NCBI RefSeq assembly: GCF_028641065.1
Contig: NC_073384.1
Span: 56,482,001 to 56,546,000, forward strand
Direction of reading: 5' to 3'
From: Leucoraja erinacea
Taxonomy: Eukaryota
DNA: 64,000 nucleotides
This document shows positions 3,725-60,496 of the stretch, one piece after another. Every line of letters begins with the position of its first letter. Within the stretch, counting starts at the first letter, position 1. The position numbers and the translations under genes are program-made. The notes beneath the pieces were generated by a model. That model worked only from the letters and a program-made list of their open reading frames with translations. It was not told the origin of the DNA and made no database searches.

Positions 3725-3980
3725 CAAGAGTCAAGAGTGTTTTTATTGTCATTTGTCCCGGCAGGCCAATGACATTCTTACTTGCTGCAGCACAACAGAA
3801 TATGTGAATATGTAAACATTGTATATAACGGGGGAAAAAAGTTCAATAAATAACAAATATAGTGCAAATAACAAATAATAATATAGTCTTTTGCAGTTCA
3901 GAGCTCATAGCTTAATTGTTGTGTTTAATAGCCTGATGGCTGTGGGGAATTAGTTGGCTATTAAACACAACAAATAAGTT
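3725..3980 (-). mobile_element. Rex1/Babar-type LINE 3' end fragment
   Basis: tcaagagtcaagagtgtttttattgtc...ttcttacttgctgcagcacaac is the reverse complement of the 3' UTR type seen at 19560-19810. Confidence 0.65.
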
Positions 3981-4024
3981 ATGCACTTTTTTATGCACTT
4001 ATAAGTTTAATGCACTTTGCAATC

Positions 4025-4375: not shown

Positions 4376-5923
4376 TGACTTTGTACTTTGATAGCTTCAT
4401 TATCTATCTGAGTGTTATCCTTTTCATATTCACAATAAACAAGTCAACATCTTGGGTATTACAGTTCCCCCAGGAACAAAAAGAGGTCAAAGGCTGTGTG
4501 TTCTGAGGCGAGAAACCTGACTCCTTATTTTCCTCAAAGCCTTTACACTATCGACAATGCACGATGATTATCCAATGTTCAGTTCCTTTAACAACTCCTC
4601 AGTAAATGGAACAGACTCTGTGTGCTGCAAGAACTAGGCAGAATTCAGTTATTATGGGTTAATAAATGGCAATGAAATTTATACCATTAATGTTACAAGA
4701 CCACTGCCACCAAGATAGAGGCTAACCATGTAATATTGGCAATAAATGCTTCACCATTGTCGGACGACCATTGACCAATAACTTGATAGGATCAGTTCCA
4801 TAAATGCTATGATTGCAGGAGCAAGTCGGAGGCATGGTATCTAGTAGCAAGTGATGCACCAACTATTTTTGTTCTGCCATTGAAAAGGCACAGTTCAGGA
4901 GTGCTGTGGTTTTCTCTGAATGAGTGCAGTTGCAGCTCACTGTATCACCACCCTGCTCTGTGTATATTGAGTACAAATTTCATGGCATTTTTTTTACCTG
5001 CATTGCTCTGACAGCACCTCCCAACCCATGACCTCTACCAAGAAGGACAAGTACAGTAGTGCAACGGGGACACCACCTAGGAACACACACCCCTTGAAAT
5101 AACACACTCTTAGCATAGAAATGAGATAAAAGGCAGGTAATTCAGCACCCCTGGTATTTTAGTTGTGCCAGATGACCATTTTTTTTAGACTATTGGGTGT
5201 TTCTCATATTAATACTCCCAGACACTTTAATTTCACATTTCCTACATGTTTCACAAGAGTATAATAAAATTTCAAGTAAAGCTGGTGAGCTTAAAAGGAG
5301 CAGGAAGTAAAGAAGTAGCCCTGACCTTGGCTCTGGCTACAAACATACACATGTTTATGACCCCTTACTGTTTGATCCCAGCCCTGGCTCCAGACACACA
5401 GCCAGCCTGCAGTCTAGACTGACTCTGGTCACACACCCTGCTTGTACTCTGGCCCCCAGCTCACATCTGGATTGATGAGTAAACCAGATGCTGATCGTTC
5501 AGGATTGCTGAACAATTGGATTCTGGATTATTGGAGTTTTCCAAATCCTGGGATTCCTTGCATGACAGCATGGCAGGCTAAGAGGACTGCAGCAATTCAA
5601 GAAGTCGTTTTGCCATGATTTCATCAAGCAATCGGGGATGGGCGATGAATGCTGGCCTTGTCAAGGATGCCTGCTTTCTGTAATTAAAAATAGTCAGGCT
5701 TGAGGAATGCACTGCATCAACTGGGCAGCACAAAAGGCCTCAAAAAGCTCTACTCCATTCAGAACAGAGCACCTGCTTGATTAATAATTCATTCACCCCC
5801 ATAACCATTAATTGCCTTCCTAATAGGCTTAGCATGCCTTCAGTAGGCATGCCTACCATCTTGCAAAATACCCTGTATTTACTCATGCAGGTTACCCCAT
5901 CAGTCCCTCCTAAACCCAGGACC

Positions 5924-6340
5924 TGTGTAGGAAGGAACTGCAGATGCTGGTTTAATCCGAAGATAGACACAAAATACTGGAGGATACTCAGCAGGACAGG
6001 CAGCATCTCTGGATAGGAGGAATGGGTGACGTTTCAGGTCAAGATCCTCCTTCAGACTGTCAGGGGAGGGAGATACTGAGATAAGGAAGCGTAAGGTGTG
6101 AAAACGAGACAAATCTGATGGAGATCAATGAAAATGTAGAATAGATCATTGTTGGCTAGGACAAAGAAAACAGAGATAAAACGTAATTGAGAACAGTCAG
6201 ACTGGTCGGAGAACTGGGCAATGAGGGGGGGGGGGATGGGGAGCAAGGTTTACTTGAAGTTAGAGGTCAATATTCATACCACTGGGGTGTAAACTGTCCA
6301 AGTAAAATATGAGAAGTGGCCTCACTCTGACAATGGACAC
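5924..6340 (-). mobile_element. Penelope-like element 3' fragment (ORF end plus terminal repeat)
   Basis: Reverse complement of the terminal repeat, with hammerhead-like core at 6028-6055; 6250-6315 is homologous to the LIFRLGSL.P.GMN ORF end seen at 46330-46400 and 49040-49107. Confidence 0.85.
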
Positions 6341-6748
6341 CTGTACCACTTGTGAAGCAGCATCAGCAGGTTCCCTTCCAGTTCACTGATGATTCTGACA
6401 TAAAAATGTATTACTATGTATAAATCCTACCCCAAAATGCCAGAGACTGCAGCAATTCAAGACAGCAGTTCACAGTGTCCACCACAAGGGCACTTTGGGG
6501 TGGGCAATTAACCCTGACTGTGCCAGAGCCTTACACATTCCATGCAAAAATGGATCTGTTCTGGTTTTAAACTTCAACAGGATACCTTCATGTTTTCTTG
6601 GATTGCCTGCCCTGGAGTGCCTCCAATCCAGGAAGCCTGTGGGCCTGTGACACAATGTTCCACTCCTCTGCCAATCACCTCTGTGTCCTGTGTGGGGCAT
6701 CTCCTGCAGACGACCTTGAAGGCACTGGACGTAGTACCCTCTCCTACT

Positions 6749-6871
6749 GGGCGGTCCACTTGCCTCCATCACCGCCGGGCGGTCCACTTGCCTCCATCAC
6801 CACCAGCGGCTCCCTCCTCCACTCTTCGTGGCTTCCCAGCTCCCTCCTCTGGTCTTCGTGGCTTCCCAGCT
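6749..6871. repeat. Two short tandem duplications
   Basis: GGGCGGTCCACTTGCCTCCATCACC twice (from 6749 and 6777); TCTTCGTGGCTTCCCAGCT twice. Confidence 0.8.
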
Positions 6872-6883
6872 ACTGTTGCACGT

Positions 6884-7085
6884 GTCAAGTCAAGTCAAGT
6901 TTATTTGTCACATACACATACGAGATGTGCAGTGAAATGAAAGTGGCAATGCTCGCGGACCTTTGTGCAAAAGACAAACAACAAAATAACCAAACAAATT
7001 ATAAACACAATCATAACACACATATTCTTTTACATAATAAATAATGGAAGGAAAAACGTTCTGTAGAGCTAGTCCCTGGTGAGAT
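6884..7085 (-). mobile_element. LINE 3' tail fragment with (CTTGA)n terminus, Rex1/L2-like
   Basis: gtcaagtcaagtcaagtttatttgtcac = reverse complement of AATAAA-(CTTGA)3 tail. Confidence 0.6.
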
Positions 7086-7130
7086 TGGCCGTTGGTCTTC
7101 GTTCTTAGGGGCCGGCGGGTCTTTGTTCTC

Positions 7131-7350
7131 AGAAAGAATTGCAGATGCTGGTTTAAACTGAAGATGGACACAAAATGCTGGAGTATTTCAGCTGGACAGG
7201 CAGCATCTCTGAGAAGGACGGATGATGTTTTGGGTCAAGACCCTTCTTCAGAGTCTGAAGAAAGGTCCTGACCCGAAACATCGCCCATTCCTTCGATCCA
7301 GAGATGCTGCCTGTCCCGCTGAGTTACTCCAGCATTTTGTGTCTATCTTA
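7131..7350. mobile_element. Palindromic head-to-head Penelope terminal-repeat insertion with 14-bp TSD
   Basis: Arms inverted about ttcagagtctgaa (~7252); flanked by GGGTCTTTGTTCTC (7117-7130) and GGGTTTTTGTTCTC (7351-7364). Confidence 0.88.
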
Positions 7351-7526
7351 GGGTTTTTGTTCTCGTTGGCTGGCGAATCTGTCCTTGTTCCTTATGCGGT
7401 CTTTGGCTGTACTTGTCCGTCCTGTCCTCGTTCTCGGCGGTCACTTCGGCTGCCGGGCTCGTTCTTGTCTGTGTCGACAGTGGGCCGGGTCTGCACCAGC
7501 TAGGCTGTACGGTGCTCGCCGGTGAC

Positions 7527-9730: not shown

Positions 9731-10956
9731 TAAGTTAATTGGGCACTGTAACTTTCCAATAGTGGTGGAATCTGGAGGGAGTAGATGGAAATATGAGGAT
9801 AACAAAATGGGATTAGTATAAATGGGTGGCCTATAGTCAGTGCAGACCCAGTGGGACAAGAGTGTTTTTGAGTTGCATGACTCTCATAGGCACAATTTTA
9901 TTATGTTGGTGCACAATAAAGTTCAGTGGGTGCAGGTTAACTGAGAGCTCTGAGCCCACATCATTACCATGTGATCTTGTTTATTGTTGTAACGATTCTG
10001 AAATCCTATTCAACTATGTGAACAAATAACCTGTTTTAGCAATTTTTTTACCTTAAGATTGCAAATTCAAAAACTAACCAATGTTTTAAAATTATCACTG
10101 ATTTAGTTGAATGGAAATAAATCCAAAAATAAGTCATTTGGAAGAGAAACAATTATATTCAATACTTTATGTATTGTCTTCCTAATTGCATATTTTAAAT
10201 TGAATTTGTTATTGAGATTATAAGTGAGTTTTATTACAATGAAATGATTTAAATCCCCAAAATTGAGGCTTCAGTTCATTAATTACTGCTGGGGTCGACA
10301 TAAGAACACCGCAACTTTACAATTAAAATTTATACTAGGATATGAGCAGCCCTCACCTAAAATTGTGTAGGTGACTGGGAATGAGAAAATCCTGGATACC
10401 AACACGCAGCTTCCCTCCTAAGTGCATATTTCCAATTTTAATGGAGGAGGTATGCAGAGTGGGCAGACACACTCATCAGACAGACTGGCAATTTCATTCA
10501 GATACACTAACCTTCCCTGCTTTCTGATTACTCCAGCTTTTGGATGTGACCTGGGGGCCTAACCGACTGACAGGTTAGCCAGCCAGCCTTTCATTTTTGC
10601 TGGCTTCAGCTGGAAATTAGTGAGTTGAAACAAAAGTGCTTATCACGTCCTGCCATTTAAATTGGACAGGAACTGATGGAAACCTGTTTCTCTGACTTTC
10701 CTCAAGTCCAATGTGATAAGAAAGGAAAACAGGCATATATTTGCTCTGGAAATTCGTTCCCGTTTTCATGTTTGTTATACACCATATGATATTGGCCTGT
10801 GTTGTGCCACTCTCGTGAAAATTAATTTCATTAACTTTAGATAGCATGTTTGATGTCTTTGCCTACCAAATATATGAAGTCAGTGGAACTGAATGGATGC
10901 CTTGATCTGTTAGTTTATGACAAATCTGGTTCACAAATCAATTCTACATTTAATAA

Positions 10957-11158
10957 CACAAAATGCTGGAGTAGCTCAGCGAGACAGGCAGCATCTCTGG
11001 AGAGGAATGGGTGACGTTTCGGGTCGAAACCCAGAAGATGGGTCTTGACCCGAAACGTCATTCCTTCTCTTCAGCGATGCTGCCTGTCTCGCTGAGTTAC
11101 TCCAGCATTTTGTGTCTATCTCCGGTTTAAACCAGCATCTGCAGTTCTTTCCTATACG
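10957..11158. mobile_element. Palindromic head-to-head Penelope terminal-repeat insertion
   Basis: Inverted arms joined at ~11033 inside the hammerhead core; TTAATAA at 10950-10956 and 11159-11165. Confidence 0.88.
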
Positions 11159-13109
11159 TTAATAATATCCATTCTTAAATATTACAGTAACTTTTTTTTA
11201 CTTGCCTTTGCCCTGCTTTTGCCTGCAGCATTGGCTGTTTGAAGAACATTTGTTCAATCAGCGCTTCTCCTCAGTGCTCCACACAACCAGGTGCACCTTT
11301 GTAGACTAGACCCAGCATGAGTTGGAGATTAATGGTCACAGAATGCTCCACAGCATATCACACTTGTTTGGCGGTAACAAACAGCATGCATTTGTATCCC
11401 AATGGCAGCATCTACAATGTTAATCTCCGCAGATTGCTGAATTTGAAATTAATACAGAGCCTGCTTGTTTTAACAGGTATAAATAAACGGCAGCTGTTGC
11501 TACATTCAACACAAGCTTTGTTCATCATCTTAAGAGGGCCTCTAACAAGGCTGGTTCTGAATTGATATTTGAAGTTGGAACCTTTTCATTGTTGACTATC
11601 TGGAGGTGAGCATATGCTAGTTTGAGTTCTCACCGCCATACTTAAAGATTGATTGATATTGAGGTTTTGATTCATTTGGGAAGTCTACCTACTGGGATTA
11701 CATGTTTTTTATAAGGGAGCTTTGAAGTACCATGTTAATTTGTATTGTTGTTTTTGCACATGCTGTTCTTGATATGTGAGCAGAACAATTGTGGATAATG
11801 ATGCTGGAGAGATTTTAGATAGAGGAGCCAACGATCATAAAATCCTCAGTACTTTCAGCGATGTGTTCCGGATGATCTTGTGTGTTTTCATTTTCCATCT
11901 TTCAATACATTGAATAATGCAGATTCCCACTAATTGTGATCTTAAAAAAGATCCAATAATTACGACTGTAACACTGGTAAAAATGTACAAAGTTTCGGAG
12001 TAAGTTGCAACCTACTTTGTCTTACCAATGATTAATGCCATAGCTTATGAACAGGAAATGTTTTGCTTCAGAGAGGGAATCTATAGGATTTTTAAAATGA
12101 GTTATTTGATTGTCAAAAGAGAAATAACTTTTCTGTTGAAATTTAAGTAAAGACATGCTTTAATACACACTTTAGAATGTAATTTTTTTTATTTAATTAC
12201 TTCATCTTTTACATTTTATTTGGTTAATATTTAACATGCTTAACATTGATTATTTGTTATTTTCATTTATTTGATGCTGACTGTGGCAGTTTTACTTTGG
12301 ATGGCAAGGAAGTAATATGACGGTCTAATATGATTTTTCTGGTGTATATGAGTGAATGCATTAGTAAATATACAATGTGAGACTGACTTGCCTGCTTTTG
12401 TGTATATAAAACACCAATGTACAGACAGTGCTTTTGTGTAGCAGAGATTTATGTGGGCATAATGTGTATGCTGTAACGATGACATTTGCATAAATGTTGA
12501 AGAAGTAACGTCGACCTCGCACAGAAAAATATAGGTGTTAATAGGAGAGTCGAAGGTTTACTTGAGCAGGAGTTAAAATATCTTTGCATGAATTGGATGG
12601 ACCAAATGTCTCCATGTGTTCTCAGTAAGGCTGCTGTCTTTCTATGAGGAGGAATCTGAAAGTTCTGACTCTGCCCTTGGTGTTCTCCTATGTTTTAGTA
12701 TCGGATTGTCTGTCGAAGAACCCAAATGCCTAATGCATTCCCATCTCGCCCACGTCAGGCAGTAGGTCATCTGATTTGGGCCTACTACTTGCAGAAGCCA
12801 TTCCCATTGCCAACAGTTGTCTTAAGTACTCCTACCATGGCACTAGGTTGTTGAGCCATTTGAGCTTCCAGATGTCCTTGGAATTAAGCGTGGCTGTTGT
12901 TTGTAATTGTACTAAGAATCTGGGAACTTCACCACTTAATGCATTGGATTTTTTGCATGTCGCGCAGGTAAGAATATGTCACTGTCCCCCGCAGATTCAC
13001 AGTCCATTATGTACCAATATTTTGACATTGTCCGTCCCGTGTTTTAAAGTTTCCAAACTGAAGTACTATCCACCTATAATTGTCTGAGATACTAGCTTTT
13101 CATTTGTTG

Positions 13110-13312
13110 AAGGCACAAAGAACGGCAGGTGCTGGTTTACAAAAAAAACCCACAGTGCTGGAGTAACTCAGCAGGTCCTGACCTGCATTTCTGGAGGATG
13201 TGGATAGGTGACTCAGTCTGAAGAAGGGGCTCCGATCCAAAACATCACCTCTCTGCGTTCTCCTGAGCTGCTGACTGACCCACTGTGTTACCTCAGCATC
13301 TTGGCTTTTTCT
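13110..13312. mobile_element. Older palindromic Penelope terminal-repeat insertion
   Basis: Minus arm (gtgctggagtaactcagc...ataggtgac) then plus arm (cagtctgaagaagggg...aaaacatcacc...cctcagcat). Confidence 0.7.
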
Positions 13313-13332
13313 CATTTGTTGGATTGTCCAAC

Positions 13333-14998: not shown

Positions 14999-16070
14999 CC
15001 ATATAACCATATAACAATTACAGCACGGAAACAGGCCATCTCGGCCCTACAAGTCCGAGCCGAACAACCTTTTTCCCTTAGTCCCACCTGCCTGCACTCG
15101 TACCATAACCCTCCATTCCGTTCTCATCCATATGCCTATCCAATTTATTTTTAAATGATACCAATGAACCTGCCTTCACCACTTCCACTAGAAGCTCATT
15201 CCACACCGCTACCACTTTCTGAGTAAAGAAGTTCCCCCTCATGTTACCCCTAAACTTCTGTCCCTTAATTCTGAAGTCTTGTTTGAATCTTCCCTATTCT
15301 CAAAGGGAAAAGCTGATCCACATCAACTCTGTCTATCCCTCTCATCATTTTAAAGACCTCTATCAAGTCCCCCCCTTAACCTTCTGCGCTCCAGAGAATA
15401 AAGACCTAACTTATTCAACCTTTCTCTGTAACTTAGTTGTTGAAACCCAGGCAACATTCTAGTAAATCTCCTCTGTACTCTCTCTATTTTGTTGACATCC
15501 TTCCTATAATTGGCGACCAAAAAATGTTGTACACCACACTCCAGATTTGGTCTCACCAATGCCTTGTACAATTTTAACATTACATCCCAGCTTCTATACT
15601 CCATGCTCTGATTTATAAAGGCTAGCACACCAAAAGCTTTCTTTACCACCCTATCTATATGAGATTCCACCTTCAAGGAACTATGCACGGTTATTCCCAG
15701 ATCCCTCTGTTCAACTGTATTCTTCAATTCCCTACCATTTACCATGTACGTCCTATTTTGATTTGTCCTGCCAAGGTGTAGCACCTCACATTTATCAGCA
15801 TTAAACTCCATCTGCCATCTTTCAGCCCATTCTTCCAAATGACCCAAATCACTCTGTAGACTTTGGAAATCCTCTTCATTATCCACAACACCCCCTATCT
15901 TTGTATCATCTGCATACTTACTAATCCAATTTAATACACCTTCATCCAGATCATTGACGTACATGACAAACAACAAAGGACCCAACACCGATCCCTGAGG
16001 CACCCCACTAGTCACCTGCCTCCAACCCAACAAACAACCATCCACCATTACCCTCTGGCTTCTCCCACAG
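14999..16070 (-). mobile_element. CR1 LINE, 5'-truncated, RT domain to 3' tail
   Basis: ORF 15350..16084 has SGVPQGSVLGPLLF, SKYADDTK, WQMEFNADKC; tandem (GTTATATG)n tail at ~15000-15015; frameshifted near the C-terminus. Confidence 0.95.
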
Positions 16071-16109
16071 GGAAGGGGCTTCATGTAAAGGTTTGCTTGG
16101 GTATAAGAT

Positions 16110-16457: not shown

Positions 16458-17959
16458 ACTCCAAAATGGCATGCTTGCATCTATGAGTTCAGGATTAAGT
16501 CAACCATCTGCGGTGGGCTTTGTAATTCAATACCTTAACTAGTCCAATTGAGAACACCCTTGTTTAATGGCTTGAGCAGCTAGTCAACAAAAATAAATTA
16601 AATTCCTTCATTTCCAATCGCCCTGCAAAGCAAATGTACAAATCGATAGAACGGCCATGCTTGATTGAACTGTGGGAAGTTTCTCAATGTATGGTGTAAA
16701 CTTCAGCAATGTCTCCTCACACTGTATGCTCCCCAAATCTTAGCTATTTCACCTTAGCTTTAACATGCAGCATTGTGTAAATCAGGTGCATTGTTTTCAA
16801 AAGTGAACTTGCATTTTGTATCGGGCGTTCCTTAGGAACTTGGCTCCAATTCGTAAATGGGATTGTTGGATTGTCAGATGCCCATTTATTTGAGAAACCA
16901 TTTTTGAAAAACACCAGGAATATAAATACGATCTGTTTTGCGAACCTTGGAATAGTTAATGTATGATTACACCTTGTGGCAAATTCTTGGGTTTCAGCCC
17001 TTGGTCTAACATGGTTTGTTGATTACATCTGTGTCCTTAAATTTTAGTTGATTGTAGAGTTAGCACTGTTTATTCGAATTCACTAACTTTGGCTGGAAGT
17101 TCACTCAAAGGCACACTTGACAGTTTTGTGCCTTGATAGATTAACATTTCTTAATCAGTATCTGGATAAAAAAAAGCAACATGTATACATGCTGAACGTA
17201 AAATAAAACCAGAAAATGCTTTATATACTCAGCAAGTCAGACTGCATCCATGGGAAGAGAGGCAGAGCTAACTTTCAGTGTGAAGACTCATCATCAGATA
17301 CTGGGATTAGGCGGTGAGAATTGAACATGTTTGTTAGTTTTCCACTTACTGTGTCATTTACATACCAGGGCCTTAAGACCTGCATGGGCCAGAGAGAATT
17401 CCCATTAACTTACTGCAAAAGTTTTCCTTAAGTCATTCATTATCATGTTGGGGATCCCCAAACACTCTACAAAGCTATCGGTCTTTCATATTTGTTGACC
17501 TGAAAGTCATTGCATGGGAGATCCCCTACAACAAGAATACCAGTCAAGCCTGAAACACTCTGTTTTAACTTCAGATATGACAGCGGTGCCACAATTTCCA
17601 TCATTTAACATTCAACTGAAATGACAAATGAAATAAGATCTTTGCAGTGGTGTTTTATATACTGTACCGCTCACTGGAAATTCAAATGCATTATAGTGGG
17701 CTAAATATTACAAAGCCACGAATTTGAAAAATAGTTTCCCAATTAGTTCAGATTAGTTTAATGATTTTTTTTCTGATTCTAAGAACAGTGGAATTTATCA
17801 GAGAGTACATTTATGTTTGGACAGGCTTGGATAAACTTTATATTATGGTGGTTTACTTATGGTGTTGAGCTCAGATCAGGTTGTGCATTTTGTACATAAG
17901 CAGACTGCAAACTGAGGTGTAATTCCATCTCAGCAGGAAAATAAAACACAACCTATTTT

Positions 17960-18100
17960 CAGGAAAAAACAAAAACTTCTAGAGGAACTCAGCAGGTCAG
18001 ACAGTGTCTGGGGAGGGATTGGACAGGTAATGCTCCCTGATCCGCTGAGTTTCTTTTGTGTTTTGCTCAAGATTCTAGCATTGGCCGTCTCCTGTATCTA
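17960..18100. mobile_element. Old palindromic Penelope terminal-repeat remnant
   Basis: gaggaactcagcaggtcagacag... followed by inverted ..tgctccctgatccgctgagttt..gattctagcat. Confidence 0.55.
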
Positions 18101-18319
18101 CAACCTATTGTGAGTTGTCCTCGGGGAATCACCATTTTATTACTCAATTGGGTATTACACTGTTGAATGTAAAAACAAGCTGTTCATCTCAAAAGCGATT
18201 CAAGGTTTTTGTTGTGTGAAGTTTCTGTTAGAATTGTTTTAATTCTGTGTAGTTGTAAATAGAATGAAAGGCTTCTTCAAAGTTGAGAGATCTGAAGATT
18301 AATATATGCTGTTAATCTG

Positions 18320-19810
18320 AAAACCTGTGTAGACCAACTGGCTGGAGTTTTTGTGGACACCTTCAACCTCTCATTTATGAAGTTTGAGGTTCCCACCTGC
18401 TTTAAGAGGGCATCAATAATACCGATGCCCAAGAAAAGTATGGTGACATGCCTCAATGAATATCGACCAGTTGCACTAACGTAGCACTAACGTTCATGAT
18501 GATGAAGTGCTTTGAGAGGTTGGTTATGGCGCATATCAACTCCTACCTCAACATGAATCTCGACTCATTATAATTTCCCTACCGACACAACAATCAACTG
18601 ATGGGATCTCACTGGGTCTCCACTTTGCACTGGACCACTTGGACAATAAAAACACAAATGTCAGGCTGTTGTTTATAGACTAGAGCTCAGCGCCGCATCC
18701 CATCATCCCCTCCAAGCTGGTTATCAAGCTCACGGAACTGGGTCTCTGCACATCTTTCTGCAACTGGATCCGTGACTTCCCCATTAACAGACTAGTTGCT
18801 GTACATACTGACAACCACACCGATAACCATCAGTACGGGAGCACCTCAAGGCTGTGTGCTCAACCCACTGCTCTACTCGCTCTATACTCACGAGCGAGTG
18901 TAGCCGGACACAGTGCGAACTCCATCTTCAAGTTCGCCGACGACACCACTGTTGTTGAACGAATTACGGGTGGTGATGGGTCAGAGTATAGAAGTGAGAA
19001 CGATCGACTGATGAAATTAGTGCCAGCCCAACAACCTGGCTCTCAATGTCAGTAAGACTAAGGAACCAATTGTGGACTTCGGAAGAGGAAAGTTGAGGAC
19101 CAACAAACGTGTATATTGACGGGATGATGTTGGAGAGTCAAAAGCTTCAAATTCCTGCGTGTGCATATCTCTGAAGATCTTTCCTGGACCTAGCAAGCTG
19201 ATGAAATTATAAAAAGAGCTCATCAACGCTTCTACTTCCTGAGAAGATTACATAGATTCAGTATGACAGAGAAGACTCTCTTGAACCTCCACAGGTGTAC
19301 AGTAGAGAGCATATTGACTGGTTGCATTGCAGCCTGGTTCGGCAACTTTAATGCCCAGGTGCGATGAAGACTGCAAAACGTGAACCCTGCCCAGTCCATC
19401 ACGGGTACCGACCTCCCTACTGTTGAAGGGATTTACAGGTCGCTGCATCGTCAGAGTTCCACACACACATTTCACTCTTGCCATCGGGAGGAAGATATGG
19501 GAGCCTGAAAATTGTTATGTCCAGGTTCAGGAACAGCTTCTTCTTCCTTGAAGCCATTAGGCTATTAAACACTACAACCTCCAAGTGAGCTCTGAACTAC
19601 ATAGACAGGGGCATTGGCTTTGTCTTTTTGCACTATTATTGTTTGGTTTGTTTTTACGTGCATGTGGGTATGTAGATATATGAACTTTTGTTTTTGTTCA
19701 TTATATCGTTTCCCGAGTACTATGTTTACATATGCTGGTATGCTGTTGCAAGTAAGAATTCCATTGTTCTGTCTGGGAAATATGATGAATAACCACTGTT
19801 GACTCTTTAC
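18320..19810 (+). mobile_element. Rex1/Babar-clade LINE, 5'-truncated, RT pseudogene
   Basis: Conceptual translation gives [59 protein letters not shown] (18925-18950); multiple stops and frameshifts; TG-rich 3' UTR. Confidence 0.92.
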
Positions 19811-27860: not shown

Positions 27861-27967
27861 TAATCAAATATTTATCCCACCCTTGTCATTCCTTCTTCTT
27901 CTTGCTCCCGTTGGGTAGAAGATACAGAAGCTTGAAAGTCTGTACCACCAGACTCAGGAGCAGCTTG

Positions 27968-28255
27968 TGTAGGAAGGAACTGCAATGCTGGTTTAAACCG
28001 AAGATAGACACAGAAAGCTGGAGTAACTCAGCAGGACAGGCAGCAACTCTGGAGAAAAGGAATGGGTGACGTTTCAGATTGAGACCCTTCTTGAGAAGAA
28101 TGGTCTCGACCCGAAACGTGACAGATTCCTTTTCTCCAGAGATGCTGCCTGTCCTGCCTTCTGCTCAAGAAGGGTCTCAATCCGTAACATCACCTATTCC
28201 TTTTCTCCCGAGATGCTGCCTGTCCCACTGAGTTACTCTAGCTTTTTGCGTCTAT
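27968..28255. mobile_element. Penelope terminal-repeat insertion: one inverted arm plus two tandem arms
   Basis: Minus arm to ~28090, plus arms from ~28095 and ~28167; flanked by CTCAGGAGCAGCTTG (27953-27967) and CTCAAGAACAGCTTG (28256-28270). Confidence 0.85.
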
Positions 28256-28956
28256 CTCAAGAACAGCTTGTTCCCCTCTGTTATCAGGCTTCTGAACAAT
28301 CCTTTCATAGATCTGGGTACTGTCCAATTCACCATTATGGACTTTGTACTTTGTCTGTGGAAATGGTGCATTACAATGCATTACAGTGCATTGCATACAA
28401 TTACCTTCTCCTTTGCTCTACATATTGTACTTGAGTTTGGCTTGATAGTATTTATGTATAGTTATATCTGATTTGATTGAATAGCATACAAAAACAAAAT
28501 TTTGCACAGTACCTCTGCACACGTGACGATAATAAATCTAAAACCTGGGTCATGGACTCAATATAATGCGTTTCCCCTTCAGGATGCAGAAAGGAAGATA
28601 TTTACTCACTGGGAGATTGGTGAATATTTTGAATTCTCTAGGATTATGGAGGATCAGTCATTGGATATGTACAAAAGCAAGATCATGTGCTAGCCTGCAG
28701 TGCAACACCAGTTTCACATGCCTTTCTTGACGTGGAAGAATTTTTGCCTCAACCAAACCCACGTGAGGTGCACGCAATCGTTAAAAAATCAAGTGCTGCT
28801 TGTCCATTATTCATATTTTTTTATTCAAAGTGCATATTTGTTTCTGATTTACATTGTAAATTTTGAACATGTCGTATAAAAAAGAGCTGTTTAATCAAAC
28901 TCTATTCAGCACGCAAAAACATCTTTAAATCAGGCATCAAATATTTAACAGACTGG

Positions 28957-32184: not shown

Positions 32185-32285
32185 CATGGAACTGCAGAAG
32201 CTGGAATAACTTGGTGGATCAGGCAGCATTTGTGGAGGGAATGGATCTGTGACATTTCGGGTCGGGACCCTTCTTCAGACTGATT
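32185..32285 (-). mobile_element. Penelope terminal-repeat single arm with hammerhead core
   Basis: Reverse complement reads CAGTCTGAAGAAGGGTCCCGACCCGAAATGTC. Confidence 0.75.
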
Positions 32286-33449
32286 CTGAATACTTTGTGT
32301 TTTGCATTTTATTTGTATGATGGAACAGCAGAAAGTGTTCAGATACATTTGAGTCAGTTGTCAAGGTGGAAGGGACGTCTGCTGATTGATGAGGAAAAAT
32401 GATTCTCATTTCTCTACCTGTACCTGAGAATCAAAGATTTGATTTTCAGTAATAAAGTATGAAAATATTCTTTCATGTCTAAAATTAAGGTGGCAAGTGT
32501 AACATACAAAAACAAGTTGTCTTTCTTGTCGTGTGGTAAAATAGTTGCACAGATCCATATTTTTGTGTTCTTACCAATGTGATTATTATGCAAAATTCTC
32601 TTTTGGAGTAAGCATTTAAAAAAATCTCTTGTGTGTCTGAAAACTGAATATCTTTATTGTGTGTTTAAGCATTGTCTCCCAACTGAAACTAATGGTAATG
32701 AATTCCTTGTCTAGTTTATGCAATTGGCTAGACGTAACTAATTAAATACATGAAGTAGTTATGATGCAGGTTTTAGGCTGGGAAATTTCTCCTACTGAAC
32801 AGGTTTGATGAATAATTGTAGAACTTAATGTTGACCCTTGAACTGGACTATTTGATGAGCATGTAAGAATAAGATATGTGGGAGATATCTAGATCCGCAT
32901 ATAAACTGCATTATGAATCTTATTCAGTAACGTTCATCATTTCTGTTGGTATGATGGTGGCTATTTTAAGCTTTACTTCCCGTTTACTTTCAACCTGGTC
33001 AGTGATGTAAGTAGTTTTATATAAACAATTGCTTGTTGGGATTACATACTACATTATTAAAAAACTATGATGACCTATCAGTGTAAAACCATCTAAGAAT
33101 AGGGTTGATGCACTTGATTTAAGTCAGAGGAAATTTAAAACCAAGAGAATCTGAGTGAAAATAGTGTGTTCTTGTTTAACAGTTTGAAAGCCAGGGAATC
33201 GTTTAACTATTCACGAAAGGAAATGCAGGTTTAGTGCTGGTTCATTAAGGTAATAAAACTTATGTTATTTGTGTACAAAAATTAAATTTATATCTCCAAG
33301 TCTTCTGCATTCACTTACTAAGCTCAGGCTATTAAGAGGTACATTATTGTTTGCTATCTGGGGTGGGTGATGTCAATCAGTGAGTAGCCATGTTGTGTAA
33401 GATGTAATCATACTCTTCCTTCAGTACTGCCAACCCTGCGTTATGGCCA

Positions 33450-33670
33450 AAGATAGACACAAAAAGCTGGAGTAACTCAACAGGACAGGCAGCATCTCTG
33501 GAGAGAAGGAATGGGTGACATTTCGGGTCGAGACCCTTCTGCGTTATGGCCATTTTGAATACGGGAATGCCTGAAGAAGAGTCTCGACCAGAAACATCAT
33601 CCATTCCTTCTCTCCAGAGATGCTGCCTGTCCCGCTGACTTACTCCAGCTTTTTGCATCTATCTTCGGAT
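33450..33670. mobile_element. Two opposed Penelope terminal-repeat arms, each with its own TSD
   Basis: Minus arm 33450-33538 flanked by CTGCGTTATGGCCA (33436-33449, 33539-33552); plus arm 33569-33670 flanked by TACGGGAAT (33560-33568, 33671-33679). Confidence 0.85.
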
Positions 33671-35679
33671 TACGGGAATCATCCAGAGATCACAAAACAC
33701 TACCCAAAAATTTGAGATACAGAATAAAATACAGATAATACGGCTTTGTGTAATGGATTGTTTTCTTGGGAAGCTAACCACCTGTAATGTGAAGGCCACT
33801 TTTATTGTAATTCAGCAGCTGCTAGTACACAATTGGCCTACGAAGTTGTGATGTTGAAATGTTTTTATACTTTATCCCTTATTCCTGAATGCAGAGTTTG
33901 TTTCTGGACAAGCCCTCCATTGATTCTGTTAACTTGGTCAAGTTTAAAACGTTGTATCTGAGCCTATGTAAAAATGTTGGTAGATAATTAACATTCCTGA
34001 TATATTTTAAATCCGATTTCATCAGTTAAACTATAATGTTTTGTGGATGTATAAAAATTACAGGTAGAAGGCAGCCTGGTCCTTTGAACCTGCCCCACAA
34101 CATGTTGGCAAGGTCATCATGGCTGCCGTTATCCTCACCAGTGTTTCCCATTGATTTATCATCAGTTATTTTTGATCTTGTCAGTGCTGCAAAAACAAGA
34201 AAAAAAAATCTGGCACCATTATGAGTAAAAATATTTGTTAAAGTCTCCTTGTGAGTCCCTCCAGGGAATCGCATCTAATCCAGAAGATAACACAGCATCA
34301 CTTCGATGAGCTCCAATCTCTGCCTGAAGTCAAGAACCAGACCAGTTTTATCTCACAGGTGGATGGAGCATGTTTGCAATGCAGTAATTGGCAATTACTT
34401 CCAGAGACTCAATATTCCATCAAGAAAGAAAAAAAACACTTAATAGTGAGTTTTTACAGCTCTTTCATAGACAGATAAAGGACATTTGGTGTACATTTGT
34501 ATGATTTTAAAAATCCATTCTGATAAGGCACTTACTGTACAAGAGTGGTGGCGGACCGGGGAAGGTGATAAGATTGTTGGTGATTCATAATAAAAGTTAA
34601 TAGTGACAGAAAGCTGCTTGAACTGGTGCATGATACTCCTTGGTGACTAACCTGTGGAGCCTCATTTGCTTATTTATGCAGATTGAAGTGTTATATGGTA
34701 AATGAAGTGTGAACAGTGAATCCCATGGAATAATTAGCCTTTCTCACGTTTAGCTAGTAACCTCTTAAAACTGTCCATGTCATTTTCTGTGTATTTTGCA
34801 CCTGGTAGTGAGTTTCATGTTCCTGCTATTCTTCGTGTTCATCCTATCAATCACCTTTGTAATTTTAAAGATATTACTAGATCATCCTTTCATCTCTCTT
34901 CCAATAAAAGGAGATTAGGTTGCACAGCCTTTCCAGGGAATCACTTTTGGTCTTTTTGCAGTGCCTCTAATCCTTTTAATATTAATATAGAACGAAAGGG
35001 TTGAATGGTGAAGTGATTAGATGACTAGATAAGCAGCAAGAGGTCTGGACCATGGATCCAAAGATGTGATTCTTCCAGAGTCAGAAAAATAATACCAGTT
35101 TCTAATTCCAGATTCATTTAATGAATCCCTAGATAAATTGGGGTGTTTAAATTCAAGTAACTAAATGATGCTGGAATTAGAAGCTAATATTATTTTGCTG
35201 ACTTTGAAACTACTTTTGCAAAAATCCCATCTGATTTACTAATTCCCTTTTGGGGAGGCAACTCTACTGACCTTGGCCAGTATATGACCCCAAATTCGCC
35301 AATGTGGTTACCTTCCCAGTTCACAGGCAAAATGGTCAATGCAGAATTATTAACAATGACCACATCTGAGAAAAGAAACTGGAAAAAGCTATCTCCTCCA
35401 TTTTGGGTACAGTGTCATCAGGATTCAATGCATTTATAAAACCAAATGTTTGTTAGTCCATTCCTCAAGAGATTTGTGCCTTTTTCCAATTAGATCATAG
35501 TCATTTTTTTCTATTAAAATGTTATGTTTTACGTAATGCCGTTGCTATTCATTTTTCAATCACATGTCTATTCAGCAAGTTCATTAATGGCTCCTTTACA
35601 TAAGTTCGCTAGCATGAAAAACCACAGTCTGATTCTGTCCACCTTTGGTTCCTGAATTAAACTGGTACAGTATAAATTA

Positions 35680-36220
35680 TGTGTAAGAAGGAACTGCAGA
35701 TGCTGGTTTAAACCAAAGTTAGACATAAAAAGCTGGAGAAACGAAGCGGGACAAGCAGCATCTCTGGAGAGAAGGAATGGGTGTTGTTTCGGGTCCAGGC
35801 GCTTCTTCAGATTTGCTCAGTAGCCATCGGGTTATTTATTCTGCTCAGGCAGGGTGTTTACCTTAGTTGCAAAGCCTTAAGGAGGTACAAGGAAGAACAG
35901 ATGCTGGTTTACAAAAAATGACACAAAGTGATGGAGTAAGTCAGCAGATCATGCAGCATTTCTGGAGAACATAGATAGTTGATGTTTTGGTCGGGACCAT
36001 TCTTCTCCAGACTTATTTAGTAACTAACCTACAAACAACCTTTTTTCCTTCCTTCCCCTCATCTGTATCCAGGTATCAGTCACCAGTCCTTGTCCTGCCC
36101 CTCCTCTTTATTCCAGTTTATCCACCCCCCACCCCGACCAGAATCTCTGAAGAAGGGTCACAAACCAAAACATCACCTATCCATGTTTCCCAGAGAATTT
36201 GTGTCTTTCTTTTGTTATAA
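35680..36220. mobile_element. Cluster of Penelope terminal-repeat arms (minus 35680-35811, minus 35885-36013, plus ~36040-36220)
   Basis: Each matches the terminal repeat; minus arms end at cttcttcaga / tcttctccagact. Confidence 0.8.
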
Positions 36221-38650: not shown

Positions 38651-38966
38651 GGCAGATTCATGGGTAATTTTCAGCCGCTTTCCGTAACCGGTTTTCAACT
38701 CCGCACCAAAGATCCCATAGCGGAGCAAAGATACTAGTGCGGAGACGGAAGCCGGTTACGGAAACATCCTCGTAAAAATCAAAGTTATTTGGGAAAAATC
38801 TTCTCCTCATTTTCAGAATTATATTATTATATTGCAGATTACACTGTGGGTCGGGTCGGGTTACGGAAATGGATGAAAAAAAGGCCCACTTTCCGCTCCG
38901 TTGCGTACTATACGTCAGACCATTGCATTTAGAAGGAGTGGTCTATCTTGCTATAGGATCTTTGGT
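38651..38966. mobile_element. Unclassified short element with interlocking inverted repeats
   Basis: CpG-rich; GTCATT at both flanks (38645-38650, 38965-38970); IR pairs 38679-38691/38752-38764, 38699-38706/38737-38744, 38705-38733/38944-38966. Confidence 0.6.
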
Positions 38967-41765: not shown

Positions 41766-42046
41766 TTTGAATTGAATGTTTACATATTCTGTTATACTGC
41801 AGCAAGTAAGTTATTTCATTGTTTTATGTGGGATATCTTTATACTTATAAACTCTGATCTTGGATGTGTGTGTATTGTGCGATGTTCATGTGCGTTTCAC
41901 ATCTCCTTGAAAACACGACACACTAACGGTAAGACTCTGGGTATGAGAAAACTGTTCTGAATTGTCCTACTTGAGATGAGCAGTACAGTGATGCTTTAGA
42001 TGAAGGATAGCATATTTTCTTCTCTGAAGAAAATTAATGACCCATT

Positions 42047-42252
42047 ATAGACACAAAAAGCTGGAGTAACTCAGCGGGACAGACAACATCTCTGGAGAAA
42101 AGAAATGGGTGACATTCGGGTCGAGACTCTTCTTCAGACTTCTCGATCCAAAATGTCACCCATTCCTTCTCTCCAGAGGCGCTGTCTGTCCAGCTGAGTT
42201 ACTTTTGTGTCTATCTTTGGTTTAAACCAGCATCCGCAGTTCCTTCCAACAC
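42047..42252. mobile_element. Palindromic Penelope terminal-repeat insertion with ~17-bp TSD
   Basis: Arms joined at ~42140; ATTAATGACCCATTATAG (42033-42050) vs ATTAATGTCCCATATAG (42253-42269). Confidence 0.85.
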
Positions 42253-43194
42253 ATTAATGTCCCATATAGCTTTTAAGGTAATCTGACAGCCCTATTGATA
42301 CTATAATCAATATTATTCCTTCATTTCCAGATGTTATTTTAAATTGAATATGTGTTCTGCCCTGCTGTTTTTAATTTGCGTTCTCTGGACTATTATAGAT
42401 CAAATCATGTTGCCAATAAAGAGCCATCTCACCACCGGGGCAGGAGAATGGGGGTCCCTGTTTTTATATTTTCTCTTTTTCAGTCTTTTGTGAGAAGTGT
42501 GTTTGGCGTACTCTTTTCGATTTGTGGTATCAAGACTTCATTAAGACAAAAATTTACATTTACAGTGTGTGAATTTTGCCTTTTTTTGGGTGGTATTTCT
42601 GAATGTATCGGCCAAGTGTTTAAATTAGCTGGAATTGTATCCTGATGTTGATCAAGGGAACTTTGAGTTGGAATTCCATCATCGGAACTGGGGAGATTTT
42701 AATTCCAAATTCATTATCTGAATTTAACGCAATAATTTATAATTGTAACTACATAAACACAAGGGTGTCATTAAAAATCCATCTTGTTCACTGATGTCCT
42801 TATGTGTCTCTGGATTTTTAGCAATGGAGTTTACCCATTAGCTATTTTCTTAAAGGGATTAGCGAGCTACCCAGTTGAGGGATTGGACAATGAAATAGCA
42901 GTGTTGACATTACTTAAAAATATACTGGGTTATGGAATTTAATTATTAAAATACGTTGGAATAAAATGATTTATATTTAATTCCAACATTAAGAATTGTG
43001 GCGTGTTTTTGAAAATTGGAATTTATTTGTTTGCTACCACATCAATAAAGGGCTGAATATCACATTCGGTCCCAAATGTTGCATCCTTTGGGATGTTATG
43101 ATGTGCTTTTTTGTGTGAGGTAGAAAGAGTAAGAGATGAAATCTAAATAGATGGCTGTAGGAATCCAAAGCAGGCTGCAAGTTGGATTTTAAAA

Positions 43195-43464
43195 TGTGTA
43201 GGAAGGAACTGCAGATATAAAACATTTTGAGTGCAGGATGGAAATTGGTGGTGAAGTTGACGAAGTCCATGAGTTCTGCACGGGCGCAAGATGTAGCATC
43301 GATGCCGTCGACAATGTAACGGAGATAGAGTTCGGGGATAGGGCCAGTGTTCGCCTGGAATAGGGATTGTTTGAAGAAGGGTGTCAACCCGAAACGTCAC
43401 CCATTCCTTCTCTCCAGAGATGCTGCCTGTCCCGCAGAGCTACTCCAGCTTTTTGTGTCTATCT
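43195..43464. mobile_element. Penelope RT fragment (minus) fused to an inverted terminal-repeat arm (plus)
   Basis: Minus ORF segment QSLFQANTGPIPELYLRYIVDG..ATSC..ELMDFVNFTTNFHPAL is homologous to the 48013 ORF; plus arm starts at 43371. Confidence 0.88.
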
Positions 43465-44910: not shown

Positions 44911-45389
44911 AACAAACAAACGTGCAAGCAGGGTGAAAAAATGTGGATTTAGAGAGATTATTTAAAATTTCGGATGTAAATAATCAAAAGGTGTGCAGTG
45001 TGCCCAAAAAGCAAATTACTACAGATGCTGGAAATCTGAAACAAACGCAGAAATGTTTGAAAAAATCAGGCTACATTTGAAAAGAGAAAAACAGTACTCC
45101 AGCACTTTGTGTCTTTTTTATAAACCACCACCTGCAGTTCCTTGTGTCAGCATAATGTTTCATCAGAGGACAGAGCTTCAACCTGATTTTGTCTTACCAC
45201 AGATGCTGGCTGACCACCTGTTTTTTTAGCATTATCTGCTTTTTTTCCACATAGACATGTCTTGCTATTGCTGTCTGATTTTTAAGTGTGTGCCTCTGTT
45301 GCATAATAAGCTGTAGTACTAAACAGTGTTCATAGATACAAAAAATATGTTTATTATTAACCTTGCTAATGAATTGGTGAAATGGAAGC

Positions 45390-46249: not shown

Positions 46250-46798
46250 AGGCCTCCCATTCCCACACTGACCTTTCTGTCCAGGGCCTCCTCCACTGTC
46301 AGAGTGAGGCCAAATGCAAATTGGAGGACCAGCACCTCATATTTCGCTTGGGCAGCTTATAACCCAGCGGTATGACTGTTGATTTCTCTAACTTCAAGTA
46401 ACCCTTGCATCCCCTCTCTCTCCGTCCCTTCCCCAACCTAGTGGTCGTAATAAGAAGGGTTTCGGCCCGAAACGTTGCCTATTTCCTTCGCTCCATAGAT
46501 GCTGCTGCACCCGCTGAGTTTCTCCAGCTTTTTTGTGTAATAATTTCACTGTCGCCCTGCTGAGTTCCATTGTTTGTATCTCGTTATCACCTTATCTACA
46601 GCCAACAATGGCTTTGATCTGCCTTTTTGCACATCTTTCATTAATTTGTTCTATTTCTTGGTTCCCTCTCCCCTGACACAGTCTGAAGAAAGGTCTCAAT
46701 CCAAAACGTCAACTATTGCTTTTCTCCAGAGATGCTGCCTGTCCCGCTGAGTTACTCCAGCATTTTGTGTAAACCAGCATCGGCCTTCCCTTCCTACA
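46250..46798 (+). mobile_element. Penelope 3' fragment (endonuclease C-terminus plus terminal repeat) with nested arm of the other subfamily
   Basis: SHSHTDLSVQGLLHCQSEAKCKLEDQHLIFRLGSL; nested arm 46454-46536 flanked by GTAATAA (46447-46453, 46537-46543); host core at 46683-46710. Confidence 0.88.
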
Positions 46799-48012
46799 AT
46801 TTTAGTTGTTGGAATATAAATGGAAGGGGCTGAGCATCGCTGTGAATTGAATTGCAGCCGTAAGTGCTGATATAAATAATATTTATTTTTGGTGTATGAC
46901 AGGATTATTTTGAATTCAGCTACTGGGCTCATAATGTGGAAAAATAAGGGTAATGTCAAAACAATGTCTCAATTATAGGTGTTTCCTGAGAGACTTTGAT
47001 TAAAATTATGTTAGTTATCCATCAGAACAGCCCTGCAAAACTGCTTTGCATTTCCGTTGGTGGCAGCCATTTCTTTGAGCTTCTTCTTCCTGTCGAGTCC
47101 ACATACAAGATTAGAAGTTGTTCAGCCAGAGCTGAATACACCTCTCGGCATCTGCATATAATGGTGTCTGTCTTGTCTCTTCTTGTGCGTGGCGGTGGAA
47201 AAATGAGTGGAAACAGGGTCGCGATGTGAACGCTCTTTCCTTGACCCCATTTCTTTGAGCTGTATTCCCCCCTTTTATTCCTAATACTGACAGAAAATCC
47301 CAGACCTCACTAAAAGCAAGTCTTGAGAATGGAGTTCACTCAGCAGATTTTTGAGTCTTGTTCTCCATACTTCACTATTTCCTTTAAGATATTACCCTTC
47401 AATTTTTCTTAAACCCTTTCCCCGATCCCCTCAGTCCTTTCAGTTACCAGTCTTTTTGTCTTTATTTGTTGTTTCTGTTAGTTTGTTCCTTCGTATTATC
47501 TTGAGTGGCTTTCTGTTTGGATAGTTTGTCGTGCAACATAGACCGTATCAAGCTGCTATACCTTGTGCTTTCCAGCATGCATCAACATGCCACATTAACT
47601 CTGTAAGAGTCCACGCAAGGCTTATAAACAACATTTAGTTCCTTTGATTCTTACGGGTGTATTTCAGTAATACCTTGACAGGTTGTGCATTAAAGCTTCT
47701 GATGTCATCAGTGAATCCTGCAAGATACCGAGCGATGAAGACTGCGTTCAATCCTTGGTCAGCTCCTCTCAGTCTGTAGCATTGTCAATAATGTGGTTGG
47801 TACATTTGCGTTATCTTATAAAGTAAAAAGCAAGCAGAAGATATTCTCTCAGTAGAAATAAAGAAATAAAGACGCCCCGCGACTCGACCACCAGCAGACT
47901 CCAGGCCCCAACTACAGCCTGCATCGCCTGCCCAAGTCCCGCGACGCCATCTTGGCCACGAGGAGCGCCTACAATACTCACCAGGACGCCGCCTTCACCA
48001 ACCTCCACATCG

Positions 48013-49107
48013 ATGCCGCCGCCGACCCTCACCTGCCTACCGATGACGCCCAGCCTCGCCGCTTCTACGGTAACTTGGACCCGCTCCCCATCGCTGATTC
48101 CTCCGACCCTCGCCGCCCTCCGGGACCGCCTAGCCTCATCGCCGCACCGGGCCTACCCGACATCGCCGCCGCACTGGGCCCATCCAGCATCTTCGCTGGA
48201 CCGGGCCCACTCTCTAGGCCCTCGCCTCCTCATCTTCACCATGGACGTCCAATCACTCTACACCTCCATCCCCCACCAGGATGGCCTCAAAGCCCTCTGG
48301 TTCTTCCTCGACCAGAGGAGCAACCTATACCCAGCCACTGACACCCTCCTCCGCCTAGCGGAGTTGGTCCTCACCCTCAACAACTTTACGTTTGACTCCT
48401 CCCATTTCCTCCAAACACAAGGCGTAGTTATGGGCACACGCATGGGCCCCAGCTATGCCTGCCTCTTTGTCGGGTACGTTGAACAATCCTTGTTCAATAC
48501 GTACCAGGGCCCCATCCCCGACCTCTACCTCCGTTACATTGACAACTGCTTTGGTGCCACCTCCTGCACCCACACACAACTGACTGACTTCATCCACTTC
48601 ACCACCAACTTCCATCCGGCACTCCAATACACCTGGACCATTTCCGACACTTCCCTACCATTCCTTGACCTCACCATCTCCATCGCAGGGGACAGACCTC
48701 TGACCGACATACACTACAAACCAACTGACTCGCATGGCTATCTGGACTACATGTCTTCCCACCCTTCCCCCTGTAAAGACTCCATCCCCTACTCCCAATT
48801 CCTCCGCCTACGCCGCATCTGTTCCCAGGATGAGACGTTCCACACCAGGGCATCGGAAATGTCCTCGTTCTTCAGGGAACGGGGATTCCCCTCTGCCACC
48901 ATAGATGAGGCTCGCACTAGGGTCTCATCCATACCCCGCAACACTGCTCTCTCTCCCCATCCCCGCACTCGCAACAAGGGAAGAGTCCCCCTAGTCCTCA
49001 CCTTTCAGAGTGAGCAACACCGGAAATTGGAGAAACAGCACCTCATATTCCGCCTGGGCAGCTTGCGTCCGGATGGCATGAACGTTGAATTCTTCCAGTT
49101 TTGCTAG
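48013..49107 (+). pseudogene. Penelope-type reverse transcriptase, truncated; GIY-YIG largely deleted
   Basis: PLE RT motifs FTMDVQSLYTSIPH, QTQGVVMGTRMGPSYACLF, YLRYIDN (normally YIDD), LPFLDL, YKPTD, SSHP, SIPYSQFLRLRRICS; VPLVLTF joined directly to the C-terminal EKQHLIFRLG. Confidence 0.92.
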
Positions 49108-49217
49108 CCCTTGCTGTCTCCTCCCCTTCCTTAACCCTCGAGCTGTCTCCTCCCATCCCCCTGCCCTCGGGCTCTTCCTCCTCCCTTTTTCCTTCCTTCT
49201 TCCCCCCCACCCCCCAT

Positions 49218-49253
49218 CAGTCTGAAGAAGGGTTTCGGCCCGAAACGTCGCCT
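49218..49253 (+). ncRNA. Minimal type I hammerhead ribozyme motif (predicted)
   Basis: CUGAAGA (49222-49228), extra A, stem II GGGU-UUCG-GCCC, GAAA, palindromic ACGU stem III without loop, GUC cleavage triplet (49247-49249); the location in a Penelope terminal repeat fits the known association. Confidence 0.75.
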
Positions 49254-49357
49254 ATTTCCTTCGCTCCATAGATGCTGCTGCACCCGCTGAGTTTCTCCAG
49301 CATTTTTGTGTACCTTCGATCTTCCAACATCTGCAGTTCCTTCTTGAACACCCAAGA

Positions 49358-49470
49358 TCTACAGATGCTAGTTTATACCAAAAATGGACCCAAAGTGTTG
49401 GAATAACTCGGTGTCAGGCAGAATCTCTGAAGAAAAAGGATGGGTGATGTTATGGGTCGGTACCCTTCTT
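49358..49470 (-). mobile_element. Penelope terminal-repeat arm, older
   Basis: tacagatgctagttta...gggtgatgttatgggtcggtacccttctt. Confidence 0.7.
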
Positions 49471-50990: not shown

Positions 50991-50999
50991 AATATATAG

Positions 51000-60341: not shown

Positions 60342-60496
60342 CATCATAGACATCTGTACAGATTCTGTTTCACAAGGTCCTAGTTAAATGTAAGGCCTTT
60401 CTCTGCAAGCGATGTAGTGTAGTTTCCTATGACTCAATCAAGAGTATTACTAGAATCACCAATGCTGTAAGTATTAAATTTACATGTAAAATTACA

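Follow-up and report, generated by a model that had tools for sequence, protein, structure and literature searches.

The closest described relatives of the structures reported here are the Penelope-like elements (PLEs) with inverted pseudo-LTRs, namely Adineta Pen2, Pen2a and Pen3a (PMC3846280; PMC8557442, Fig. 2 legend) and D. virilis Penelope (PMC2377424). In these elements a 5'-truncated inverted copy lies head-to-head, a tail of 30-40 nt is present at one end, one target-site duplication (TSD) surrounds the insertion, the repeat carries a hammerhead motif, and partial tandems occur. The layout of an inverted repeat with one tail and one TSD has already been published (PMC3846280, PMC8557442). 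The origin of the inverted repeats and tails was stated as unresolved in PMC8557442, and self-priming on an antisense template was proposed in PMC3846280. The palindromes in the 64-kb stretch of DNA analysed here (the window) share this layout and are a minimal variant of the known Penelope structure. They differ in consisting of the terminal repeat alone on both sides (about 70-125 nt per arm), in their density of 7-9 per 64 kb, and in TSD length, which reaches 13-16 bp where the rotifer cases compared have 8-10 bp (PMC3846280).

Poseidon from Anolis carolinensis (PAc, PMC11167929) resembles the local element in its two reverse transcription (RT) start sites bounding the tail, its AC-rich outer end, and the nicking and extension of both target strands. 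These properties were published from in vitro work with the anole protein, which is modelled as a dimer (PMC11167929), and they supply the parts that a two-strand model needs. The main text of PMC11167929 discusses no inverted insertions and assigns no start site to either strand; start sites were seen not to differ between strands there, and it gives no account of why the strands would take different sites. The clade of PAc is probably different from that of the local element, whose RT relatives mostly have a zinc-finger-like Cys pattern in the linker.

MITEs are alike in being short, hairpin-forming, non-coding and flanked by duplications. Unlike MITEs, however, the window palindromes have unequal termini (one arm always longer), variable TSDs, unique junctions and a retroelement origin. 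In L1 twin priming, cDNA synthesis is primed on both target strands, so that a single TSD encloses an inverted segment and the junction shows short microhomology; each cDNA copies its own, non-overlapping part of the RNA, and the second one begins at random. In contrast, the window arms appear to copy the same stretch from two fixed neighbouring starts, and they overlap on the template in six of seven loci, the exception being the locus at 43195. Non-LTR retrozymes and solo minimal hammerheads (PMC4209133; bioRxiv 10.64898/2026.07.22.740005) likewise derive from pseudo-LTRs, are short and non-coding, carry a type I hammerhead and abound in vertebrates. They are described as head-to-tail tandems or monomers, whereas the window loci are head-to-head pairs within one TSD, with a partial tandem only at 27968.

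A literature search, with most subscription papers, older Penelope reviews among them, outside its scope, found no repeat-only palindromes in cartilaginous fish and no two-strand/two-start-site explanation. A term search of the supplements of PMC11167929 found nothing relevant, and passages of PMC12910113 and PMC8969392 held nothing further on mechanism. That the layout, both-strand priming and two starts were not found tied together in print is weak evidence of novelty, and the genomic tail ends in supplementary figures of PMC11167929 may be relevant to it.

The focal insert (7131-7350) consists of two head-to-head copies of a Penelope-like 3' repeat (pseudo-LTR) with one enclosing TSD. Its features are as follows.

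7117 to 7130, plus strand: left TSD copy, 14 bp, matching 7351-7364 at 13 of 14 positions
7131 to 7252, minus strand: tailed arm, Penelope-like 3' pseudo-LTR, repeat positions 0 to about 125, 3' end outward, with a 29-nt 3' overhang beyond the other arm
7224 to 7251, minus strand: mirror copy of the hammerhead-like motif
7252 to 7350, plus strand: tail-less arm, same repeat as the tailed arm, positions -2 to about 95, overlapping the left arm by 1 nt at 7252
7255 to 7282, plus strand: minimal hammerhead-like motif (CUGAnGA, stem II, GAAA, short helix III), CpG-decayed, fitting the min-HHR description in PMC4209133
7351 to 7364, plus strand: right TSD copy, paired with 7117-7130

The sequence-only reading had described two inverted arms with outward 3' ends within a 14-bp duplication at 7117-7364, and the arms and TSD listed above bear this out. 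TSDs were scored as flanking direct repeats at most 8 bases from the arm ends, in 27 candidate units. The focal TSD scored 11; none of 2999 random flank pairs attained this value, 6 of 3000 local pairs did, and cross-pairing of 42 real flanks gave a top score of 6. On folding, the focal stretch formed a single DNA hairpin (z = -15.8), equalled in none of 200 shuffles. The focal arms differ by 1-2 nt at the junction, and because of this near-symmetry the focal locus alone cannot tell both-strand priming from fold-back of a single strand.

Six other firm head-to-head loci and one control pair were found in the window; none is assigned a strand as a whole.

10950 to 11165 (locus 10957): tail-less minus arm and tailed plus arm, blunt junction, weak 7-bp TSD (10950-10956/11159-11165, 7/7, score 7, p about 0.03-0.04)
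13097 to 13321 (locus 13110): older subfamily, tailed minus arm and tail-less plus arm, 4-nt junction microhomology, 12/13 TSD (13097-13109/13309-13321, score 10, local p about 0.005)
17948 to 18109 (locus 17958): older subfamily, tail-less minus arm and tailed plus arm, 10/10 TSD
27953 to 28271 (locus 27968): tailed minus arm and two direct plus arms (partial tandem, the outer one tail-less), 14/16 TSD (27953-27968/28256-28271, score 10, local p about 0.005)
33436 to 33679 (control pair 33447/33571): two tail-less arms, head-to-head, with separate TSDs of 14/14 and 11/12 whose copies lie 4 bp apart
42033 to 42265 (locus 42047): tail-less minus arm, longer 5', and tailed plus arm, blunt junction, 12/13 TSD (42033-42045/42253-42265, score 10, local p about 0.005)
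43195 to 43464 (locus 43195): head-to-head join of an inverted tail plus RT piece (minus) with a tail-less repeat (plus); the TSD search found none

The four loci previously given the same architecture (10957, 13110, 27968 and 42047) all proved real, and those at 17958 and 43195 are additional. The locus at 27968 had been taken for a two-arm palindrome. It is indeed a head-to-head unit within a TSD, but it contains three arms, one inverted and the others in partial tandem. Its target site lies within another repeat. In the partial tandem (28095-28257), the first direct arm ends at about position 65 and is followed by a few unassigned bases with a small hairpin and then by the second direct arm. 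TSD length varies between loci (7, 10, 13, 13, 14 and 16 bp), as had been claimed, although the range is 7-16 bp under our scoring instead of 7-17 bp. A single TSD encloses both arms clearly in five of the seven loci and weakly in one.

At 43195, the left half comprises a 22-nt tail followed by 146 nt of inverted Penelope RT coding sequence, 77% like the long copy described below. This half has no sequence in common with the right arm, and a forced arm-to-arm alignment there is spurious. The stretch at 35883-36217 is a probable eighth head-to-head locus, with a tailed minus arm and a tail-less plus arm carrying about 128 nt of extra 5' sequence. Another at 45018-45250 is probably an old palindrome of a diverged subfamily, into which a younger arm (45090-45150) has inserted. 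The TSD search was also empty at 35883-36217, 32185, 45018 and most older single arms. The control pair might stem from two insertions at a hot spot, or from one concerted event in which two pairs of nicks were made separately.

The arms are identifiable as the 3'-terminal repeat of a Penelope-like retrotransposon, because they follow remnants of the endonuclease (EN) terminus and of RT coding sequence in two longer copies.

46255 to 46798, plus strand: 5'-truncated long copy with the endonuclease C-terminus, 3' UTR and a repeat of the focal-arm subfamily
48109 to 49351, plus strand: longest Penelope-like copy, with RT and thumb, endonuclease mostly deleted, 3' UTR and a tailed repeat of a sister subfamily

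The derivation from a Penelope terminal repeat suggested earlier is upheld by this linkage. The first of these copies carries a nested single arm at 46452-46538. For the RT reading frame of the second, the best named relatives were bamboo shark proteins (68% and 65%), which points to a cartilaginous fish as the probable host, and 366 homologues were found, many with RT plus GIY-YIG. The GIY-YIG domain (PF01541) was present in four of the five homologues scanned. In the window copies the core GIY-YIG is deleted, and just the final ~45 residues match a homologue (E 0.001). The open reading frame at 47827-49107 joins RT and thumb straight to the final endonuclease residues, with most of the linker and GIY-YIG missing. 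A loose Cys pattern occurred in the RT-EN linker of 96 of 98 homologues with a recognisable EN motif; the count started from 120 homologues, 22 without an EN motif were left out, and the linker of the window copy itself is deleted. A zinc-finger-like motif in this linker is a trait of Neptune/Nematis (PMC8557442). Taken together, RT linkage, tail, truncation and inverted layout assign the palindromes to Penelope-like elements. Fragments of another RT-bearing LINE lie at 15350-16108, 50705-51217 and 60350-60757, the first with an RVT_1 match. From their resemblance we take these fragments to be CR1-like.

At its head, the repeat shows the layout of a minimal hammerhead as described in PMC4209133. 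Among 148 cells of the hammerhead pairing, 81% pair, against 21-56% when the pairing is slid. A covariation count over 20 decayed copies gave 0 compensatory changes. Rfam returned nothing at gathering level in the window, and at E-value level over 5900-7400 only a generic hairpin and no hammerhead. The ribozyme identity therefore rests on the motif and the literature. We rejected a microRNA precursor, since the MIR856 match (59.9 bits, threshold 297) was that of a generic long hairpin.

Fourteen of 17 main-subfamily arms start within -2 to +12 of the first hammerhead-core base, and the short form of the arms, starting near this core, is the dominant feature in the window. The arms had been thought to be fused at their ribozyme ends. 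Their junction does fall on the 5' side of the ribozyme motif or close to it, but not at the predicted cut site. Hammerhead cleavage was rejected as the source of the arm heads: the predicted cut follows position 28, and the heads are 16-30 nt upstream of it. Four single arms folded as RNA showed no significant stability (z -1.26 to 0.47), so no structure is claimed at the RT start sites. A pyrimidine tract ending in CAG lies just ahead of the hammerhead core (690-716, 6050-6075, 46663-46688 and 49200-49227) and looks like both a splice acceptor and an initiator. The sequence at -4 to +1 may be initiator-like; the same site also resembles a splice acceptor. In D. virilis Penelope, an intron ends at a place just ahead of the hammerhead core (PMC4209133).

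The arms within a locus were unequal in a regular way. In all seven loci the element tail was present on exactly one arm, an asymmetry absent from the sequence-only reading. The 3' overhangs measured 29, 44, 36, 35, 37 and 29 nt in six loci, and the seventh carried the 22-nt tail piece. Independent choice of start site would give the one-tail pattern with a probability of at most 0.5^7 = 0.008. A fixed tail-motif search caught five of the seven firm loci; those at 27968 (deletion) and 17958 (diverged) were missed and were scored from alignments.

The opposite ends of the arms varied. The five junctions that could be mapped to the consensus all differed, as had been anticipated, with overlaps of 1, 0, 4, about 2 and 0 nt, and the arm spans differed at all seven loci. 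The arms were non-nested in four of the seven loci (13110, 17958, 42047 and 43195). The tail-less arm extended further 5' than the tailed arm by about 35-39 nt at 13110, 20 nt at 17958 and 14 nt at 42047, so neither arm at these loci can be a copy of the other. At 10957 and 27968 the arms were nested.

Arms of the same locus also shared sequence variants. In four main-subfamily pairs, 1, 2, 2 and 1 non-CpG variants were shared (mean 1.5), against a mean of 0.31 in 129 between-locus pairs (resampling p = 0.002). Some of these variants are subfamily markers of common occurrence, these arms also went into the reference, and the pairs are not independent. A single donor would be expected to lead to such sharing, and conversion driven by the hairpin could produce a like signal. 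It had been proposed that an empty site would carry a single TSD copy. A paralogue of the target repeat of 27968, at about 19475-19570, can be aligned over the emptied site and has a single copy of the duplication, which agrees with the proposal, though the match to the right of the site is weak (11/30 ungapped, p = 0.11) and improves with one 3-nt gap. For the other 11 of 12 emptied sites, no paralogue within the window spanned the junction.

We propose, with a probability of roughly 0.65, that the palindromes are dead-on-arrival insertions of an endonuclease-bearing Penelope-like element, each made on site by priming from both strands instead of being propagated as a palindromic unit. As suggested by the one TSD around both arms, the element protein would nick both target strands 7-16 bp apart and leave 3' overhangs. 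Each 3'-OH would then prime one cDNA on the element RNA, as happens in vitro in the related lizard element. The tailed cDNA would start at the outer RT start site and the other about 30-45 nt inside it, without the tail; the asymmetry is observed, and its link to the start sites is what the model supplies. Both cDNAs would usually halt near the 5' side of the hammerhead motif. Their ends would be joined bluntly or via 1-4 nt of microhomology, as the observed junctions suggest for the putative repair route, and gap filling would produce the TSD. Extension of one strand only would give a single arm with a TSD, a form also found in the window.

The single tail, the differing junctions, the non-nested arms in four of seven loci and the non-homologous arms at 43195 favour two target-primed cDNAs over fold-back or a MITE. 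De novo formation by reverse transcription primed from both strands of a staggered break, as the sequence-only reading had it, thus gives the best fit to the non-nested and non-homologous loci, but stays short of proof. The evidence base is seven loci in one window. The most telling locus, 43195, has no detectable TSD, and its halves could therefore be separate events. With arm identities of 40/61 and 32/42, two of the non-nested loci are old, and later loss of sequence may have affected them. Three of the seven loci also fit fold-back, namely the nested 10957 and 27968 and the near-symmetric focal locus.

Fold-back is the strongest of the alternatives, although we consider it unlikely. An antisense transcript (PMC3846280) or the first cDNA would fold and prime its own copy; the hairpin would be integrated or resolved, and a nuclease would trim one tail. 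This is the published account of head-to-head repeats. It also predicts the variants shared between arms, and a 7-nt near-palindrome at -3 to +4 lies in the common junction zone. Moreover, PMC8557442 ascribes the tail to nuclease resolution of an intermediate, which could erase nesting. On the other hand, in four of seven loci the tail-less arm has 5' sequence absent from the tailed arm, or the arms have no common sequence. The blunt junctions at 10957 and 42047 offer no complementarity for priming, and the anole protein in vitro uses both-strand target nicks with sense RNA (PMC11167929). Fold-back has no account of the locus at 43195, if that locus is one event.

A mobile palindrome seems quite improbable. 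Such a unit would have been born a few times and then either been transcribed and spread by retrotransposition in trans, or been carried as a MITE by the transposase of a DNA element. The size of about 200-250 bp, the strong hairpin and the many loci would suit this, and pseudo-LTRs have been described as enough in cis for mobilisation (PMC3846280). However, the mapped junctions and the arm spans are not constant, the arms come from at least three subfamilies, and the termini are unequal with TSDs of 7-16 bp. The earlier conclusion that these are not MITEs is sustained on these grounds.

Two successive independent insertions, the second arm landing inverted at the head of the first, are no easier to credit. 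As the control pair at 33447/33571 demonstrates, two distinct arms can insert head-to-head with a few bases between them; the anole protein nicks sites inside the repeat of its own element (PMC11167929), and nested or adjacent copies exist at 46452 and 49352. But in this same pair each arm has a TSD of its own, both arms lack the tail and no variants are shared, whereas in the fused loci a single TSD encloses the two arms, the junction has none, and there is always one tail. Least credible is an inverted duplication that host replication or repair later made out of a single-arm insertion: the window often has single arms with TSDs (four clear), but the second arm ends beside the TSD at an element-defined, non-random end, and the non-nested arms and those at 43195 cannot be copies of a first arm.

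Within the reading of two target-primed cDNAs, the one-tail asymmetry appears to tie the two arms to the two RT start sites of a Penelope-like element. A more specific form of this reading is possible, though we hold it only tentatively. Twin priming might be built in, with one dimer using one RNA, often a short one that begins at an initiator-like site just ahead of the hammerhead motif. With the outer start on one strand and the inner start on the other, the tail, inverted repeat and long TSD would arise from a single reaction in which the tailed cDNA trails. The tailed arm is the shorter one at the junction in four of seven loci, and at 43195 the tailed cDNA segment departs after 22 nt, just before the inner start zone.

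The value of these loci lies in abundant natural evidence on mechanism, seven of them leaning to both-strand priming without proving it. Each palindrome preserves its two start sites and two stop sites together with the junction and the stagger of the nicks, so the mechanism can be tested by counting. Two-strand extension, if true, would explain the known one-tail inverted-repeat habit of Penelope-like elements, and it bears on the group of reverse transcriptases to which telomerase is most closely related. By extrapolation, 7-9 minimal palindromes per 64 kb would mean many thousands per such genome. They also matter for annotation, because the loci look like MITEs or microRNA hairpins.

A profile search of the window gave 41 matches, and none in the reversed window. 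Two weak matches (14535 and 55131) were dropped, and the remaining 39 arms were grouped by eye into 29 loci. Of these, seven are firmly and two probably head-to-head; among the nine loci with a clear TSD, five are head-to-head. The palindromic form is accordingly common, and to call it dominant, as before, was an overstatement. The single arms with clear TSDs lie at 27738, 28956, 33447 and 33571. A bacterial promoter and terminator scan, irrelevant here, returned nothing. Several minor observations accompany the census. The tailed arms at 32185-32282 and 46682-46798 lack internal stretches (about positions 82-109 and 89-101) in the region in which tail-less arms terminate; the deletions pass over this region and may represent template jumps over the inner start site. 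The adjoining stretch at 32283-32305 may be a vestigial inverted arm. Further short inverted repeats at 35073-35209, 3906-3983 and 38679-38764 are unrelated to the Penelope repeat. At 49218-49470, the long RT-bearing copy and a minus-strand arm form a tail-to-tail pair, the arm lying directly against the tail of the copy.
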